Shown here: piece by piece, positions 6,092 to 59,702 of the stretch | How the letters are laid out: every line of letters begins with the position of its first letter | Numbering within the stretch: the first letter of the stretch is position 1 | Source of the DNA: Escherichia coli | Lineage (GTDB): Bacteria > Pseudomonadota > Gammaproteobacteria > Enterobacterales > Enterobacteriaceae | Length of the DNA stretch: 64,000 bases | Assembly: GCF_002854065.1 (NCBI RefSeq) | Contig: NZ_CP024147.1 | Reading direction: 5' to 3' (one strand) | Position numbers and translations under genes: made by a program | The notes under the pieces: model-generated | What the model was told of the DNA's origin: nothing | Seen by the model: only the letters and a program-made list of their open reading frames with translations | The model's database searches: none

Positions 6092-6419
6092 TTATGTTGG
6101 CGTTTTCTATTCAGTATAGAAGTCGGAGCGGCTGGGCGAGATGCGGAAGTTCTGGAATGTTTCTTTTTTTGGTGATGGTGAACTGATGGTGCCTGAAGCA
6201 ATTTGGCTACTTTTGCAATGTGACAAGTTATGGCACGGCTGGCTGGTGGCGAAGAATTTTGACGATTGAGGCATGCAGAAAAAACGGGCTCAGCTTCAGT
6301 TGATTAAATGAGGAGTGAGAAGTCCGAAACAGGATTTACTGTATAAATAAACAGCTATTTTGTTGAGGAAGGGTAAGATAACGGCGGGTGCCTGAAGCTT
6401 TCCGGTTTCAGGTTTACTC

Positions 6420-6495
6420 TGAGGTCTGGAAAGATGAAGCCCCAGGAGATATTTCTATCAACCCTGGGGCTGCCACTCCAAACCAGACAATTTGG
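6420..6495 (-). ncRNA. sokE: Putative Sok-type antisense RNA region for copy 1 (position inferred, not resolved)
   Basis: In hok/sok loci the antisense RNA is transcribed opposite the leader and covers the mok/hok translation-initiation region; placed by analogy only. Confidence 0.3.
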
Positions 6496-6531
6496 ATGGT
6501 AGTTCCTTCTTCGCATGGAGGCAATATAAAC

Positions 6532-6684
6532 ATGCTGACGAAATATGCCCTTGTGGCAGTCATAGTGCTGTGTTTGACGGTACTGGGATTTACGCTTCTG
6601 GTCGGAGACTCGCTGTGTGAGTTTACGGTGAAGGAACGTAATATTGAGTTCAGGGCTGTTCTCGCTTACGAACCGAAGAAGTAG
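6532..6684 (+). CDS. hokE: Hok-family type I toxin (50 aa), copy 1; an in-frame upstream ATG at 6496 gives a 12-codon mok-like extension
   Basis: [50 protein letters not shown] is a Hok-family sequence; the ybdK-entD position is where hokE lies in E. coli. Confidence 0.85.
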
Positions 6685-6923
6685 CCGTTGTGCGGGGAGT
6701 AATCCCCGCATATCCGGTTGTCAGGTCAGGATGGTAAGGCACCTGCTTTACACTTTCGCCCGCGGTCAGTGATGGCTGCGGGCGGTTTCGTTTTAAGAGC
6801 AATGATGAGTTTTGCCGACAGAAGTCCGAAACAGGATTCACTGTATAAATAAACAGCTATTTTGCTAAGGAAGGGTAAGATAACGGCGGGTGCCTGAAGC
6901 TTTCCGGTTTCAGGTTAACTCTG

Positions 6924-6998
6924 AGGTTTGGAAAGATGAAGCCCCAGGAGATATTTCTATCAATCCTGGGGCTGCCACTCCGAACCTGAACAACTCGG
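6924..6998 (-). ncRNA. sokE: Putative Sok-type antisense RNA region for copy 2 (position inferred)
   Basis: By analogy with hok/sok architecture; the leader sequence is duplicated along with hok. Confidence 0.3.
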
Positions 6999-7034
6999 AT
7001 GGTAGTCCCTTCTTCGCATGGAGGCAATATAAAC

Positions 7035-7187
7035 ATGCTGACGAAATATGCCCTTGTGGCAGTCATAGTGCTGTGTTTGACGGTGCTGGGATTTACGCTT
7101 CTGGTCGGAGACTCGCTGTGTGAGTTCACCGTAAAGGAACGTAATATTGAGTTTAAGGCTGTTCTCGCTTACGAACCGAAGAAGTAG
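7035..7187 (+). CDS. hokE: Hok-family type I toxin (50 aa), copy 2 (R41K relative to copy 1); in-frame upstream ATG at 6999
   Basis: [50 protein letters not shown]; second unit of the tandem repeat. Confidence 0.85.
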
Positions 7188-7308
7188 CCGTTGTGCGGGG
7201 AGCAATCCCCGCATATCCGGTTGTCAGGTCAGAGTGGTAAGGCACCTGCTTTACACTTTCGCCCGCAGTCAGTGATGGCTGCGGGCGAATCGTACCAGAT
7301 GTTGTCAA

Positions 7309-34232: not shown

Positions 34233-34774
34233 CTGAAGACGCTCTCTGAACGTTACAGGGTGATCAGTGAGATAAGACTGTTAATTATAAAGTAAACACT
34301 GAAAAGCAGAGTGTTTTATTTTTCATTCGCGCTGTGAATAAATAGGTGAAAGTTATAGTAGCTGTCTGAGGTTATATATCAAAAACACTCATTTAGACGG
34401 TCAATGAATCGTGAGAACACCAGATTGTTTAAAGAAGATTTATTATAGGAAATGTAAAGCTTTATTGAAGGTAACGGATGTTCTAGTTTTATCTCTTTTA
34501 AATTAAGAAAGTCACGGTGGGAGTTATAAAGTTCATAGGGGACTATTCCCAGTAAATCTGTAACTGCAATGCTATTAATGATTGTCAGCAAAGAGGAACC
34601 ACGAAATGAAATTTTGCGATTCATAAATCTCTCGTCTATTTCCATTTGAATATCATCAACCCCTGCTGATTTAGATATTAATTGGGTGAACTCTTCTGCC
34701 ATAATTTGTTCATAAGTGCGGTGATGCTGCCAACTTACTGATTTAGTGTATGATGGTGTTTTTGAGGTGCTCCA

Positions 34775-35050
34775 GTGGCTTCTGTTTCTATCAGCTGTCC
34801 CTCCTGTTCAGCTACTGACGGGGTGGTGCGTAACGGCAAAAGCACTGCCGGACATCAGCGCTATCTCTGCTCTCACTGCCGTAAAACATGGCAACTGCAG
34901 TTCACTTACACCGCTTCTCAACCCGGTACGCACCAGAAAATCATTGATATGGCCATGAATGGCGTTGGATGCCGGGCAACCGCCCGCATTATGGGCGTTG
35001 GCCTCAACACGATTTTCCGCCATTTAAAAAACTCAGGCCGCAGTCGGTAA
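34775..35050 (+). CDS. insA: IS1 InsA
   Basis: 91-aa [27 protein letters not shown]... (zinc-finger/HTH protein of IS1). Confidence 0.95.
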
Positions 35051-35472
35051 CCTCGCGCATACAGCCGGGCAGTGACGTCATCGTCTGCGCGGAAATGGAC
35101 GAACAGTGGGGATACGTCGGGGCTAAATCGCGCCAGCGCTGGCTGTTTTACGCGTATGACAGGCTCCGGAAGACGGTTGTTGCGCACGTATTCGGTGAAC
35201 GCACTATGGCGACGCTGGGGCGTCTTATGAGCCTGCTGTCACCCTTTGACGTGGTGATATGGATGACGGATGGCTGGCCGCTGTATGAATCCCGCCTGAA
35301 GGGAAAGCTGCACGTAATCAGCAAGCGATATACGCAGCGAATTGAGCGGCATAACCTGAATCTGAGGCAGCACCTGGCACGGCTGGGACGGAAGTCGCTG
35401 TCGTTCTCAAAATCGGTGGAGCTGCATGACAAAGTCATCGGGCATTATCTGAACATAAAACACTATCAATAA
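34969..35472 (+). CDS. insB: IS1 InsB reading frame (transposase made as InsAB' by -1 frameshift at the aaaaaac motif near 35027..35033)
   Basis: 167-aa ORF ...[21 protein letters not shown]...; the slippery a6c motif lies within the insA/insB overlap. Confidence 0.9.
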
Positions 35473-36268
35473 GTTGGAGTCATTACCCATAAGTGCTATT
35501 GTCAGTAATTCGTGGATGCCTATTACTACAAATTAGAGTATTGCGAATCGTATGCAATGGCATGCAAATGACGGAACGGCTGATCACTGGCATTTGGGTG
35601 ATCACCAGATCGGCTTTGCGGTGAACCAACAGTTCTTCAGCATTCTCTGCTGACATGAGGATATCATGGCACTCAATCTCGACAGAGGAATCTTGTCGTA
35701 GGCAGCGGATCAGCATACTATTATTAGAGCAAGAAATGAGCTGAGGGCCGTGAATAATAAAGTTTTTCTTTAGTTCGGACTTATTGACTATATTAATTGT
35801 TTGTTCAAGGCCTCTGAGATTTTTCTCAAGATGGTGATGCAGATTTAACCCTGTTGTCGTCGGCGCGATACCTTTTCCTGAGCGAATGAATAAAGGGTCA
35901 TTAAATTGCGCACGTAAGCGTTGTAACGACTGGCTCACGGCTGATGGGGTGATATATAGTGATTCAGCAGCTTTGCTAATGCTTAAATGCTGGTAAATAC
36001 ACTCAAATATGACAAGAAGATTTAAGTCGAACTTTTTCAAGTCGTAGAGATTGGTCATACACTACTCCGGTTATATTTTTCTTCCATGATATATTCACTT
36101 AATCAATGTTTTTTTTGCGTATATATTTTTATTGGTTATGTTTTTTTGCTTAACTCAGGATTAAGTTTTTCTAAAATAGCACAGCCACTTAGGGCAGAGC
36201 GAGCAATTCATGCTTTTTTAGGATGGTTGAAAAGCAGGGATATAGTTCAACCATCCATGAATTACCTT

Positions 36269-37386: not shown

Positions 37387-37950
37387 ATGTCCTTGATTAA
37401 CACCAAAATTAAACCTTTTAAAAACCAGGCATTCAAAAACGGCGAATTCATCGAAATCACCGAAAAAGATACCGAAGGCCGCTGGAGCGTCTTCTTCTTC
37501 TACCCGGCTGACTTTACTTTCGTATGCCCGACCGAACTGGGTGACGTTGCTGACCACTACGAAGAACTGCAGAAACTGGGCGTAGACGTATACGCAGTAT
37601 CTACCGATACTCACTTCACCCACAAAGCATGGCACAGCAGCTCTGAAACCATCGCTAAAATCAAATATGCGATGATCGGCGACCCGACTGGCGCCCTGAC
37701 CCGTAACTTCGACAACATGCGTGAAGATGAAGGTCTGGCTGACCGTGCGACCTTCGTTGTTGACCCGCAAGGTATCATCCAGGCAATCGAAGTTACCGCT
37801 GAAGGCATTGGCCGTGACGCGTCTGACCTGCTGCGTAAAATCAAAGCAGCACAGTACGTAGCTTCACACCCAGGTGAAGTTTGCCCGGCTAAATGGAAAG
37901 AAGGTGAAGCAACTCTGGCTCCGTCTCTGGACCTGGTTGGTAAAATCTAA
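37387..37950 (+). CDS. ahpC: Alkyl hydroperoxide reductase peroxiredoxin subunit AhpC
   Basis: 187-aa [24 protein letters not shown]... with peroxidatic FTFVCPTEL motif. Confidence 0.95.
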
Positions 37951-38078
37951 GTTCCGCAATCGCGTAATTAATCGGGTGCTGCGGCACCCGATTTTCTTCC
38001 CCGCACCATGATGCAAGCTGCATCCAGGTAGCCGCAGAGGCCGCTTGCATGATGATGTTTAAAGCCCAGGAGATAAAC

Positions 38079-52909: not shown

Positions 52910-54295
52910 TTACTTGCCTGTGACCGCTGCTGCTGTTCCTGGCACCATCAGCTCTGTAGCAACGATAACAATCACCAGCCCAACAAGCACCGGCACCGAG
53001 GTGCGTTTTACGACTTCAAATGGTGAGATTTTCGCCATCCCGGCAACCGCAACGACTACGCCAGAAACGGGCGAAAGGGTACGGCCGAGGTTTGACGCCT
53101 GCAGCATCGGGATAGTCAAATACGCCGGGTTAATGCCGGAAGAGTGCGCCAGTTTCGGGATCATCTCAACAAACGCATAAAACGGCGCATTGCCTGAACC
53201 GGTCGTGACTGCCGCCAGCATTGTCAGAATCACCAATACCAGCATCAGGATGATACTCGCCGAACCAAACGAGGTAGCGATAGAAATCAGACTTTGAATA
53301 AAGCCGATGGTGCTAAGCCCCTGAGCGAATACCCCAGCGGCAACCAGCAGCATCACCACGTTAGCAAACGCATCTGCCATCCCGCGATAAGCCACTTCCA
53401 GACCAGAGAAAACTTTCTGGGTATTAAAGCTGCGGAGGAACTCCAGAATGGAGGCAATCAGCATACAAATCACCAGAATAGTGATGATGTGTAATTGCGG
53501 ACCCCATTTACCGTCAAAAATCAGTACACCGATGATCGGCGTGAACGGCAAAATGGCATAAAACGCAGGAGCAGTGGTGGTGATTTCACTGACATCTAAC
53601 ATTTCATGAGAGATGTGCTCTTTTTTATCCAGATAACGTTGCCAGAAGAAGTGGGCGATCGCCATGCCGATAATTGCAGCAATTGAGATAGGCAGCGTCG
53701 TTTTGAAGGCGAAGTCAATCAGCGACATTTCGGAAGCTTGCGCCGCCAGCACCACATCCCCTGAAGTCGGTGCGAGAATAATCGCCGCCGGGGAGGCACA
53801 AATGGCAGCTGCTGCCCCACGACTGATACCAACGTTTACCATCACCGGAAACAGGGTTGCCATCAGCAAAACACCCAGACCGGTTGCGGAAGAGACGGCC
53901 AGTGACATCAGACAGGCAACAAAATAGGCGGCAATCATCAGCAGGTAGGGGGAGTTAATATACTGCAATGGTTTTGACGCCAGCTTGACCACCATATCAT
54001 TCGCGCCGATATGGGTCATGTAAGCGGCAAAGCCACACAGCATCATAATCATCATGCCGAGGTCGCCGCCGCGGCTCATTAGCAATATTTTAACGTATTC
54101 AACGATATCCGTGGCGCTGTAGCCTGTTGAAGCTTGGCTGGACGGTAACACTTTGTGCCCCATAATGGCACTGATAATCAGCAATAACAGGCCACCGACA
54201 AATAACACACCAGTGGCGGAATACCCTTTAATGATGTAGCGAGCTACACCCACAATAACCACAACCCCAATAAGGAGTTCAATGAATGTCAGCAT
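52910..54295 (-). CDS. dcuC: Anaerobic C4-dicarboxylate transporter DcuC
   Basis: 461-aa polytopic membrane ORF matching recalled DcuC. Confidence 0.9.
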   Translation of the reverse strand: MLTFIELLIGVVVIVGVARYIIKGYSATGVLFVGGLLLLIISAIMGHKVLPSSQASTGYSATDIVEYVKILLMSRGGDLGMMIMMLCGFAAYMTHIGANDMVVKLASKPLQYINSPYLLMIAAYFVACLMSLAVSSATGLGVLLMATLFPVMVNVGISRGAAAAICASPAAIILAPTSGDVVLAAQASEMSLIDFAFKTTLPISIAAIIGMAIAHFFWQRYLDKKEHISHEMLDVSEITTTAPAFYAILPFTPIIGVLIFDGKWGPQLHIITILVICMLIASILEFLRSFNTQKVFSGLEVAYRGMADAFANVVMLLVAAGVFAQGLSTIGFIQSLISIATSFGSASIILMLVLVILTMLAAVTTGSGNAPFYAFVEMIPKLAHSSGINPAYLTIPMLQASNLGRTLSPVSGVVVAVAGMAKISPFEVVKRTSVPVLVGLVIVIVATELMVPGTAAAVTGK

Positions 54296-54880
54296 AATTT
54301 TTCCTGTCTCCAGGCCCCAAAGTAAATAATAAAAAATTCCTAAAGCTTAAGGAAAAAATATGCCCAATAAATTGGCGGTGGATGCTGATTAAAATCAAGA
54401 AAAACTGCCATTAAGACATTGAAGTTGCTGTTTTTATACGTAGATAACAAAACGCATATTTAGCGGTTGGCAATTATCACATAATAATGTGTGTAAATTG
54501 ATGGAGGATTGATGCAAATTTGTTAATCGCAATGGTGTTAGCTGCGGTTGCGTGCTCAGAAAATAATCTACCATGAGCATGGGTTGACGATATATATTAT
54601 ATGCTTCGTTAAGATGATTGTTGTATTTCATTGAAAAATAAAGAAATATTTCCTTGATTGCATTTTGTCATCAAAAAAGACTTGGTTTTTTTTTGACTAT
54701 TCCCATCGAAGAAAACGACGCATCATCTTTAATCGATGCGCGGAAATATTTAACTTAAACAAGCGGAAATAAATAGAGCAGCTATTCAGATTATTCTTTA
54801 TGTTGGGGCTATTAAGGTTATGTTAATTGTAGCTTTGCTATGCTAGTAGTAGATTTTTGATAAATGTTTTATGGTCACAA

Positions 54881-55441
54881 ATGAACGTGAGTAAATATGT
54901 CGCTATCTTTTCCTTTGTTTTTATTCAGTTAATCAGCGTTGGTAAAGCTTTTGCTAACGCAGATGAGTGGATGACAACGTTTAGAGAAAATATTGCACAA
55001 ACCTGGCAACAGCCTGAACATTATGATTTATATATTCCTGCCATCACCTGGCATGCACGTTTCGCTTACGACAAAGAAAAAACCGATCGCTATAACGAGC
55101 GACCGTGGGGTGGCGGTTTTGGCCTGTCGCGTTGGGATGAAAAAGGAAACTGGCATGGCCTGTATGCCATGGCATTTAAGGACTCGTGGAACAAATGGGA
55201 ACCGATTGCCGGATACGGATGGGAAAGTACCTGGCGACCGCTGGCGGATGAAAATTTTCATTTAGGTCTGGGATTCACCGCTGGCGTAACGGCACGTGAT
55301 AACTGGAATTACATCCCTCTCCCGGTTCTACTGCCATTGGCCTCCGTGGGTTATGGTCCAGTGACTTTTCAGATGACCTATATTCCGGGTACCTACAACA
55401 ATGGCAATGTGTACTTTGCCTGGATGCGCTTTCAGTTTTGA
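54881..55441 (+). CDS. pagP: Lipid A palmitoyltransferase PagP (CrcA)
   Basis: Track ORF 54857..55441; recalled PagP (186 aa) starts [25 protein letters not shown]. Confidence 0.9.
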
Positions 55442-55615
55442 GACAAATGAAGTTTTAGTAAATTCTTTAAAATCAATGAGTAAAATAATTAACATCAAAA
55501 ATAACGCGACTTTTATCACTTTTTAGTAAAGTTGCACTGGACAAAGCGTACCACAATTGGTGTACTGGTAACCGACACAGCATTTGTGTCTATTTTTCAT
55601 GTAAAGGTAATTTTG

Positions 55616-55825
55616 ATGTCTAAGATTAAAGGTAACGTTAAGTGGTTTAATGAGTCCAAAGGATTCGGTTTCATTACTCCGGAAGACGGCAGCAAAGACG
55701 TGTTCGTACACTTCTCTGCAATCCAGACTAATGGTTTTAAAACTCTTGCTGAAGGTCAGCGCGTAGAGTTCGAAATCACTAACGGTGCCAAAGGCCCTTC
55801 TGCTGCAAACGTAATCGCTCTGTAA
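55616..55825 (+). CDS. cspE: Cold-shock-domain protein CspE
   Basis: Track ORF 55532..55825; recalled CspE (69 aa) starts [20 protein letters not shown]. Confidence 0.95.
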
Positions 55826-55845
55826 GATACGTCAGCAAGAATTCA

Positions 55846-55873
55846 AAACCCGCTTAATCAGCGGGTTTTTTTT
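55846..55873. terminator. Bidirectional rho-independent terminator between convergent cspE and crcB
   Basis: aaacccgcttaatcagcgggttttttttg: hairpin flanked by an A-run and a T-run. Confidence 0.7.
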
Positions 55874-55878
55874 GGTCT

Positions 55879-56262
55879 TTAGTGTGCGGTTGAGGCCGAA
55901 AACAGCCAGAAAGCCAGTGCGGTCATGGCAAAAGACCCCAGAAGGTTGACGAAAACGTTCAGTAACGCCCAGCCAAAGCGGCCCTCTTGTAACAAAAACA
56001 CCACTTCTGCCGAAAATGTTGAGAAGGTTGTTAGACCGCCACAAAATCCGGTGGTGATTAATACTTTCCACACGGGATCAATGTTCGTCATCCTGCTGAA
56101 CCAGGCGAATCCCATTCCTATGATGAATGCCCCAATCAGGTTTGCTGCCAGCGTCCCCAACGGAATCGCCTGATGCAGCGGGTTAAATCGCATACTTAAC
56201 AGCCATCTCGCCACGCTTCCTGTACCACCGCCAATAAAAACTGCTAAAAGAAGTTGTAACAC
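55879..56262 (-). CDS. crcB: Fluoride ion channel CrcB (Fluc)
   Basis: 127-aa 4-TM ORF matching recalled CrcB. Confidence 0.9.
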
Positions 56263-56354
56263 TGCAAAATCCTGCTATTTGATTTGTATGAGTGATAAGT
56301 GTAACGCCGAATAATCGTCGTTGGCGAATTTTACGACTCTGACAGGAGGTGGCA

Positions 56355-57143
56355 ATGCTGGTTGCTGCAGGACAGTTTGCTGTTACATCTGTGTGGGAAA
56401 AGAACGCTGAGATTTGTGCCTCGTTGATGGCGCAGGCGGCGGAAAACGACGTATCGCTGTTTGTCCTGCCGGAAGCATTGCTGGCACGCGATGATCATGA
56501 TGCAGATCTATCGGTTAAATCAGCACAGCTGCTGGAAGGCGAATTCCTCGGACGTTTACGGCGAGAAAGTAAACGTAACATGATGACGACAATTCTGACG
56601 ATTCATGTTCCTTCAACGCCGGGGCGCGCATGGAATATGCTGGTGGCACTTCAGGCAGGAAACATCGTCGCCCGTTATGCCAAACTGCATCTCTATGATG
56701 CATTTGCCATTCAGGAATCACGCCGTGTTGATGCTGGTAATGAAATCGCTCCGTTACTGGAGGTGGAAGGGATGAAGGTCGGTCTGATGACCTGTTATGA
56801 CTTACGCTTTCCAGAGCTGGCGCTGGCACAGGCATTACAGGGAGCTGAAATCCTGGTACTTCCTGCCGCCTGGGTTCGCGGGCCGCTCAAAGAGCATCAC
56901 TGGTCAACGTTGCTTGCCGCTCGTGCGCTGGATACCACCTGTTATATGGTGGCGGCGGGGGAGTGCGGGAACAAAAATATCGGGCAAAGCCGGATTATAG
57001 ATCCCTTTGGCGTCACCATTGCGGCAGCGTCAGAAATGCCTGCACTCATTATGGCGGAAGTGACGCCCGAACGTGTGCGTCAGGTGCGCGCGCAACTGCC
57101 CGTCTTAAACAACCGTCGCTTTGCGCCGCCGCAATTATTATGA
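56355..57143 (+). CDS. ybeM: Carbon-nitrogen hydrolase (nitrilase superfamily) YbeM, apparently intact here
   Basis: Track ORF 56349..57143 (GTG start); the ATG at 56355 gives a 262-aa ORF matching recalled YbeM. Confidence 0.8.
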
Positions 57144-57271
57144 TGTTTTTTTACTCGGCGCTTGATTCACCTTGTTACAGATTGCTATTGTGTGCGCGCG
57201 TCGAATGACCGTTAATATTCTCTGGTTTTTAAGGCGCGTTCTGTTGCCGGTTATATGTCAAGAAGGTATCT

Positions 57272-57475
57272 ATGGGTGAGATTAGTATTACCAAACTGCT
57301 GGTAGTTGCGGCGCTGGTCGTTCTGCTGTTTGGGACTAAGAAGTTACGTACGCTGGGCGGAGACCTTGGAGCGGCCATTAAAGGGTTCAAGAAGGCGATG
57401 AATGATGACGATGCTGCGGCGAAAAAAGGCGCAGACGTTGATCTTCAGGCTGAAAAGCTCTCTCATAAAGAGTGA
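57272..57475 (+). CDS. tatE: Twin-arginine translocase subunit TatE
   Basis: 67-aa [36 protein letters not shown]... (TatA/E family). Confidence 0.95.
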
Positions 57476-57514
57476 CGTGGCGAGCAGGACGCTCCCTCAA
57501 TATCTTGTTCGATA

Positions 57515-57546
57515 CAAAAAACCCGCTTCAAAAAGCGGGTTTTTTA
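57515..57546. terminator. Bidirectional rho-independent terminator between convergent tatE and lipA
   Basis: aaaaaacccgcttcaaaaagcgggttttttat: perfect hairpin flanked by A- and T-runs. Confidence 0.75.
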
Positions 57547-57575
57547 TCAGACAGATGTAAGTAATTATTACAGGA

Positions 57576-58541
57576 TTACTTAACTTCCATCCCTTTCGCC
57601 TGCAAATCGGCGTGGTAAGAAGAGCGGACAAACGGACCGCATGCAGCATGGGTAAAGCCCATCGCCAGCGCTTCGGCTTTCATTTCGTCGAACTCATCCG
57701 GGCTAACGTAACGTTGAACCGGCAGGTGATGGCGGCTTGGCTGCAAATATTGCCCCAGCGTTAACATCGTCACACCATGACGGCGCAGGTCGCGCATTAC
57801 CTCAATAATTTCTTCATTGGTTTCACCCAGTCCCACCATCAGACCAGACTTGGTCGGGATTTCCGGATGTGCTTCTTTAAAGCGTTCCAGCAGCTTCAGC
57901 GACCAGTTGTAATCTGCACCAGGCCGTACCTGACGGTAAATACGCGGTACGTTTTCCAGGTTATGGTTGAACACATCTGGTGGCGTTGCAGTCAGAATAT
58001 CCAGAGCACGATCCATACGACCGCGGAAATCCGGCACCAGAGTTTCAATTTTGATTTGCGGGCTTTTTTCCCGAATGGCAGTAATGCAATCCGCAAAGTG
58101 CTGGGCACCGCCATCGCGCAGGTCATCACGGTCAACGGAGGTGATAACCACATAACGCAGCGCCATATCGGCAATGGTCTGCGCCAGTTTCACTGGCTCA
58201 TTGGCATCAGGAGCTACCGGCCGACCGTGGGCAACGTCACAGAACGGACAACGGCGGGTACAAATAGCGCCGAGGATCATAAACGTTGCTGTGCCGTGGT
58301 TGAAGCATTCCGCCAGGTTAGGGCAGGAGGCTTCCTCGCAGACAGAATGCAGGCCATTTTTGCGCATTGCGGCTTTGATGCCCTGGATACGTGTAGAGTC
58401 CGCTGGAAGCTTGATTTTCATCCATTCCGGCTTGCGCAGCAGGGCTTCGCGCTCTGTTGCCACGTTTTTAACCGGGATAAGGGCCATCTTATCGGCATCG
58501 CGGTATTTAACACCGCGTTCCATCACAATGGGTTTACTCAT
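57576..58541 (-). CDS. lipA: Lipoyl synthase LipA (radical SAM)
   Basis: 321-aa ORF with two cysteine clusters for the [4Fe-4S] centres; matches recalled LipA. Confidence 0.95.
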
Positions 58542-58749
58542 AGCGTGCGTGTTCCAGTTGCGAATTACGAAGGAAAGCGTTTCAATTCAATAGATTGTTG
58601 TAATTATCAACTATTTTTGAATTAACGACTGGCAGTATATCATTGAAACGGACCTGAAAGCAGCCAAAGCGGTCGCGAAAATGTAAAATTGTTGTTGGAT
58701 TGTGCCATTTTATCGTTCTGCGCTGTGATCTGGCTGTAACAATACTTTT

Positions 58750-59702
58750 TCAAAATGCATTACGGATAACATCTATTACTCCGTGCAGGATGGGATCACG
58801 CAGGCTGAATTTGTTGTAGTGGATAGAGAAATCTATTTGCTCCTCATTTAAGGACGGAAAAGGCAGTTTTTCCAGCGGCCAGCAACGGCTAAACAGGTTA
58901 TAAAAACGGCTGGGAATAATCGCTAACATGTCACTGTTGGCAACCAGTGCAGCGATTGTCAAAATGTTGTAGCTGGTGAAGCTGATCTGCCGGTCCGGAA
59001 ACATCTCTTGAATTCTCTGCCGCAGACCGCTGAAATTTTGTCCTTCCGGTAACAGGAGTACATGTGCAGCGTTGTCGATAGTCTCTCTGTCATCTTCTAA
59101 AGAGAGTAGTGGATTTCCCTCGCGGCAAATTAACACCATATTGTCGGTGAACAGAACATGATGTTGCACCGTACGATTGGTGCAAAACATGTTATCGATG
59201 ATGAGATCGGTTTGAAACTGACTGAGTTGGTTTTCCGCGTCGCTGATGGGAGGGTTGCGCAGTAAAAGCTGCGGATAGTGAGTTTTAATCGCCCGATAAA
59301 TGACAGGAAGGACCAGGGCTCCGACCGAGGGGGTGGTCGCGATAGTTATCGTTCGTTGCTTATCATAGCTTCCTTCGATATCCAGCGCGCCAAGAATGGA
59401 TTCAAGGCCCTGACTGATATACTCATGTAGATGCATCGCAAATGCGGTAGGAGTGACACCCTGGCCTTTGCGAATAAACAATGGGTCAGGGATATAACGC
59501 GCAGTTTCTGTATAGACTGACTGATTGCCGAGGGGGTCAGATTAAGCACTTTCGCTGCATTAACGATCCCTTTATGTACATATACAGCTTCAAAAATAGT
59601 CAGAAGGTTAAGATCAATATTTCGTAAGGTTGTAAATATTTGTGGTTTACCTTCTGACGACTTTCTGCTTAAACAGGGTTCGATTTGATTATTACTATCC
59701 AC
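58750..59702 (-). pseudogene. ybeF: LysR-family regulator YbeF, split into two out-of-frame ORFs (59346..59702 HTH part; 58750..59481 effector part) by an apparent 1-bp deletion near 59478..59485
   Basis: The N-terminal ORF has the LysR HTH (LNLTPSAISQSIQKLRVI) then runs into nonsense; the next frame continues with the conserved PDPLFIRKGQG motif. Restoring one T in the tatatcc tract would give a single ORF of about 317 aa. Confidence 0.7.

Follow-up and report, generated by a model that had tools for sequence, protein, structure and literature searches.

The 64,000-nucleotide stretch of Escherichia coli DNA analysed here (the window) carries ybeM as what we consider, with high confidence, to be an intact and functional allele; its product belongs to the Nit1 branch of the CN-hydrolases and is most likely a deaminated glutathione (dGSH) amidase, and the window itself comes from a background that is neither K-12 nor B and lies near the isolate CUWW06. 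The gene is already known and ordinary, its name being curated and its function published, and since an intact ybeM is the normal state in E. coli its presence has little significance by itself. The only mildly new point concerns the natural breadth of the frameshifted ybeM allele found in K-12. The features defining the locus are the following:

56355..57143, plus strand: ybeM coding sequence, an open reading frame of 789 nt comprising 262 codons and a TGA stop, with no interruption
56344..56349, plus strand: AGGAGG, a Shine-Dalgarno sequence read off the sequence 5 nt before the ybeM ATG, putative ribosome-binding site
55879..56262, minus strand: crcB (fluoride channel), open reading frame, divergent upstream neighbour of ybeM
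57272..57475, plus strand: tatE, from its open reading frame and the annotation of homologous loci, downstream of ybeM on the same strand

The list of open reading frames together with direct reading of the sequence gives an ATG at position 56355 as the start of ybeM and a TGA that finishes at 57143, the mechanical list itself opening the frame two codons earlier, at a GTG in position 56349. The ATG was retained because the GTG overlaps the AGGAGG sequence and because PGAP calls the same 789-bp coding sequence in CUWW06 (1503692..1504480, corresponding to 56355..57143 of the window and nucleotide-identical to it). The order of crcB and ybeM is that of MG1655 and CUWW06, and the more extended arrangement crcB-ybeM-tatE-lipA is shared with MG1655, ET350, CUWW06 and REL606. 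Using megablast with a 1.1-kb region, the ybeM locus was recovered from 5,424 of 5,426 complete E. coli genomes, always flanked by crcB and tatE, and the name given by PGAP to its product in complete E. coli genomes is deaminated glutathione amidase.

The region between crcB and ybeM, which is common to both divergent genes, measures 92 bp. A simple promoter scan of this intergenic region revealed no sigma-70-like promoter on the plus strand for ybeM; on the minus strand the scan returned a promoter-like site (56355..56328) that is directed at crcB. No convincing terminator was found between ybeM and tatE in a terminator scan. Screening of positions 55000–58000 against Rfam yielded neither an RNA element within or upstream of ybeM nor a fluoride riboswitch before crcB, the only match above its gathering score being the cspA thermoregulator RF01766 in the cspE mRNA region (55431–55873, plus strand; 127.6 bits for a gathering score of 78). 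A whole-word search of the full-text literature for ybeM gave incidental mentions only, in the contexts of NsrR ChIP in CFT073, a conjugation GWAS and tetracycline transcriptomics. The first of these sources assigns an NsrR ChIP peak to ybeM in K-12 and CFT073 alike and gives an expression about 3-fold lower under nitric oxide stress in a CFT073 mutant (PMC5320621). These published NsrR data suggest a possible regulation by nitrosative stress in the crcB-ybeM region (approximately 56263–56700 of the window).

Comparison of YbeM with the Pfam entry CN_hydrolase (PF00795) gave an E-value of 8.3e-41 and 140.4 bits for a cutoff of 23.2, residues 3–245 aligning with profile positions 2–255 of 256, which places the protein in the superfamily. 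With the NCBIfam entry NF033621 (deaminated glutathione amidase, E. coli type) a score of 452 bits was obtained for a cutoff of 355, and residues 3–261 align with profile positions 2–260 of 260, so that 259 of the 260 positions are covered and YbeM belongs to this family as well. Together with the open frame described above, these two matches show a real gene, well beyond a chance open frame, and bear out the original prediction, which had described ybeM as an intact 262-codon gene of the nitrilase superfamily. The catalytic residues of the superfamily were located by alignment with the Nit domain of C. elegans NitFhit (PDB entry 1EMS):

56472..56474, plus strand: codon of the catalytic Glu40 (VLPEA motif), aligned with Glu54 of 1EMS
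56682..56684, plus strand: codon of the catalytic Lys110 (YAKLHLYD motif), aligned with Lys127 of 1EMS
56793..56795, plus strand: codon of the catalytic nucleophile Cys147, aligned with Cys169 of 1EMS

Thus, Glu40, Lys110 and Cys147 fall residue for residue on Glu54, Lys127 and Cys169 of 1EMS, which form the catalytic triad of that structure (Pace et al. 2000). NitFhit is also the first of the solved structures retrieved with YbeM (3e-29), followed by yeast Nit2 (4H5U, 1e-26), and both are of the Nit1 branch; mouse Nit2 (2W1V, 3e-22) and yeast Nit3 rank below them. The margin in bit score is modest, with 105 and 97 for the Nit1-branch structures vs. 82 for the ω-amidase type (Nit2). Yeast Nit2 (4H5U/4HGD) is, despite its name, the Nit1 orthologue. 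YbeM shares with the Nit1 branch (1EMS, 4H5U/4HGD) the fold family and the alignment of the triad, whereas the sequence similarity is only moderate (E-values of 1e-26 to 1e-29); it is not fused to Fhit as NitFhit is, and it is shorter than yeast Nit2, whose insertions it does not have.

The reaction that we propose for YbeM follows the chemistry of the family. The proposed substrate, dGSH, is a useless side product of transaminases acting on glutathione. Cys147 would attack the amide to form a thioacyl-enzyme intermediate, with the glutamate acting as the presumed general base and the lysine probably stabilising the tetrahedral intermediate, and the predicted outcome of the amide hydrolysis is 2-oxoglutarate and Cys-Gly (EC 3.5.1.128). 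YbeM is presumably expressed, and its enzymatic activity is predicted from the family annotation and from published Nit1/YbeM biochemistry. The study of Peracchi et al. 2017 (PNAS 114:E3233, PMC5402446) is cited in PMC5714238 and PMC8711792, and according to the summary in PMC5714238, dGSH is hydrolysed by mammalian Nit1 and by its yeast orthologue; dGSH hydrolysis is the reaction proposed for YbeM and the Nit1 branch alike.

It might be argued that YbeM is an intact CN-hydrolase whose physiological substrate is not dGSH, the enzyme being an ω-amidase with 2-oxoglutaramate or 2-oxosuccinamate as its substrate, as Nit2 and YafV, or another amidase or nitrilase. Substrate specificity in the nitrilase superfamily is indeed hard to deduce from sequence; the Nit2/ω-amidase group (mouse 2W1V, E. 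coli YafV-type NF007757) has the superfamily and the triad in common with YbeM, both would be amidases of 2-oxo-acid amides, mouse Nit2 is still matched at the E-value given above, and weaker matches extend to other CN-hydrolase families such as aguB, archaeal nitrilase and the YafV-type amidohydrolase. Nevertheless, YbeM exceeds the cutoff of NF033621 by 97 bits and stays far under those of the other NCBIfam models, with 58.4 bits vs. 249 for NF007757 (ω-amidase/YafV-type amidohydrolase), 60.2 vs. 500 for NF040852 (true nitrilase) and 61 vs. 410 for the aguB model. The solved structures closest to it are those of the Nit1 branch, the Nit2 type coming after, and the E. coli Nit1 homologues are reportedly excellent, efficient dGSH amidases. 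We therefore regard a substrate other than dGSH as improbable and retain dGSH amidase as the function of YbeM. The NCBIfam model of the Yersinia-type deaminated glutathione amidase (NF043013) was scored as well and gave 82.5 bits for a cutoff of 500; it describes another subfamily.

The copy of ybeM in MG1655 (b4581, NC_000913.3) occupies the same locus and is orthologous. The original prediction had described it as a pseudogene, and it is indeed annotated as such, at 658031..658818, with a length of 788 bp and one G missing; W3110 carries a 788-bp allele identical to that of MG1655 and flagged as frameshifted. The corresponding position in the window is:

56554, plus strand, codon 67: G absent from K-12, whose presence keeps the frame open (pairwise alignment, 70-mer census and sequence context)

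At codon 67 the sequence GGA CGT TTA of the window becomes GGA CTT TA in MG1655, and the deleted base does not lie in a homopolymer. Over the whole gene the pairwise alignment of MG1655 with the window shows this one deleted G and five substitutions (99.2% nucleotide identity). Because the G is deleted, the product read in frame 0 in K-12 is only 75 residues long, retaining Glu40 and devoid of Lys110 and Cys147. A rescue of the K-12 gene by -1 ribosomal frameshifting was considered and dropped, as the stretch that runs from the deletion to the first stop contains no slippery heptamer of the form X_XXY_YYZ. Two of the differences between the alleles, V33A and V37A, are T-to-C missense changes situated 12 bp apart (MG1655 658128 and 658140, corresponding to 56452 and 56464 of the window).

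The REL606 protein (WP_000959109.1) is, on the other hand, identical to that of the window and is encoded in the same context, with crcB divergent upstream and tatE downstream. The two ybeM genes differ at 7 nucleotides, and all 7 differences are synonymous, a pattern consistent with purifying selection.

In order to count the K-12 deletion allele, exact matches were sought for a 70-mer that has the MG1655 deletion at its centre, which gave 860 of the 5,424 complete genomes. The codon-67 deletion is accordingly not found in 4,564 genomes (approximately 84%), a figure that covers this lesion alone, and the intact form of ybeM is both the ancestral one and that of most E. coli. An exact 70-mer covering both V33A and V37A matches 365 genomes, and the five carriers that were sampled are all laboratory K-12 derivatives, which makes the pair a compact K-12-specific marker. 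Approximately 495 genomes share the frameshift and do not have the missense pair, with wild isolates among them. Among the carriers of the frameshift are one human stool isolate from Mozambique and another from Ecuador, in which PGAP annotates the gene as frameshifted; over 3 kb these isolates differ from MG1655 by two bases only, namely those of V33A and V37A, where they show the wild state V33/V37. Since wild carriers of the frameshift keep V33 and V37, the frameshift is older than the two missense changes, which were added in K-12 afterwards.

Tentatively, and with rather more doubt than conviction, we propose that the ybeM frameshift, which serves as a hallmark of K-12, could be a natural allele with loss of function that a sizeable lineage of wild E. 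coli has inherited, and not a laboratory lesion. If this is true, K-12 would naturally lack a conserved metabolite-repair enzyme, and in the frameshift lineage dGSH repair would be dispensable, would have a backup in another amidase (YafV, for example), or would even be selected against. As there is a natural lineage that does without ybeM, the function of the gene is dispensable in at least some backgrounds. K-12 work on glutathione-related metabolite repair would then have been carried out in a natural ybeM null, and the census (860 carriers, 365 with the missense pair) could guide a study of whether the loss of the dGSH amidase is neutral. In practice, an intact ybeM quickly rules out K-12 as well as the natural lineage with the same frameshift; being the common state, it does not identify a strain.

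We further compared the whole window with reference genomes in order to place its background. Alignment with MG1655 (601288–665674) gives collinear blocks of 97.5–98.9% identity and over 1,100 mismatches in all, and none of the loci named in the original prediction is identical in the two, which firmly supports its proposal of an origin other than MG1655. This level of identity, the structural differences and the intact ybeM lead us to exclude MG1655 and any other K-12. With 98.6–99.2% identity to REL606, the window is not E. coli B either. The closest complete genome is that of CUWW06, a wastewater isolate from Thailand, from which the window differs over 64 kb by 13 SNPs, one indel (in ybeF) and an IS1. 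ET350 matches the window at 100% over 1.1 kb around ybeM but at only 98.7% in the surrounding 5 kb (54000–59000), a pattern that speaks for mosaicism by recombination at the ybeM locus. Two intergenic segments of MG1655 are missing from the window: 183 bp between fepB and entC (624541–624723; window approximately 22390) and approximately 130 bp between ahpC and ahpF (639509–639638; window approximately 37950–37965). Both are probably intergenic repeats of the REP/BIME type.

Two other explanations of the open frame have to be weighed against these comparisons. An intact frame would be uninformative on strain background if the window came from a K-12 derivative in which ybeM had been repaired or had reverted. 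The gene order is the same as in K-12, and nothing further speaks for such an origin, which is refuted by the more than 1,100 mismatches to MG1655 and by the absence of IS186B; the tandem duplication of hok/sok in the window, the five substitutions in ybeM, where the K-12-specific A33 and A37 are not found, and the mere 13 SNPs that separate the window from CUWW06 also argue against it. In addition to the identity of 97.5–98.9%, all the markers of the K-12 lineage that were considered are thus lacking, with the codon-67 G present, V33 and V37 kept and IS186B absent, and we attach next to no probability to a repaired K-12. The same negligible weight is given to an artefact of sequencing or assembly, in which a spurious extra G would have opened the frame. 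Single-base indels are the commonest assembly error and the window does contain one private 1-bp deletion, in ybeF, that occurs in no other genome; but the G at 56554 lies outside any homopolymer, three independent assemblies agree with the window at 100% in the 1.1-kb ybeM region, and approximately 4,564 complete genomes have the intact allele; the last two results refute an artefact of this kind. We therefore maintain that the window carries a genuine intact ybeM in a background that is not K-12.

Other loci of the window are changed as well, and the three alterations that the original prediction had listed beside ybeM, i.e., a hok locus without IS186, an IS1 in ybdO and a frameshift in ybeF, were all recovered. 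At the hok locus, MG1655 has a single copy of hokE followed by IS186B (608007–609351), and this element is absent from the window. The window has two tandem copies of the hokE/sokE type I toxin-antitoxin module (6318–6784 and 6820–7287), which are 95.3% identical, and two hokE coding sequences are annotated in CUWW06. The remaining two loci are as follows:

59492, minus strand: 1-bp deletion of an A (GGGAATAT to GGGATAT) that splits ybeF, a LysR-type regulator, into two open reading frames (58750–59481 and 59346–59702)
34720–35487, plus strand: IS1 of 768 bp inside citR (formerly ybdO), with the canonical terminal repeats GGTGATGCTGCCAACTTACTGAT and GGTAATGACTCCAACTTATTGAT

Of the 4,377 complete genomes that match at this site, none has the exact ybeF deletion; it stems either from a mutation private to the source strain or from an error of assembly. 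The IS1 in citR is flanked by a 9-bp target duplication (CATAAGTGC), and its exact junction with citR occurs in no complete genome. Either the source strain is therefore absent from the genomes compared, or the ybeF deletion and the IS1 junction are private or erroneous changes. In 197 genomes an IS1 lies elsewhere in citR, within tens of bp of this site, which suggests that citR is a recurrent target of this element.
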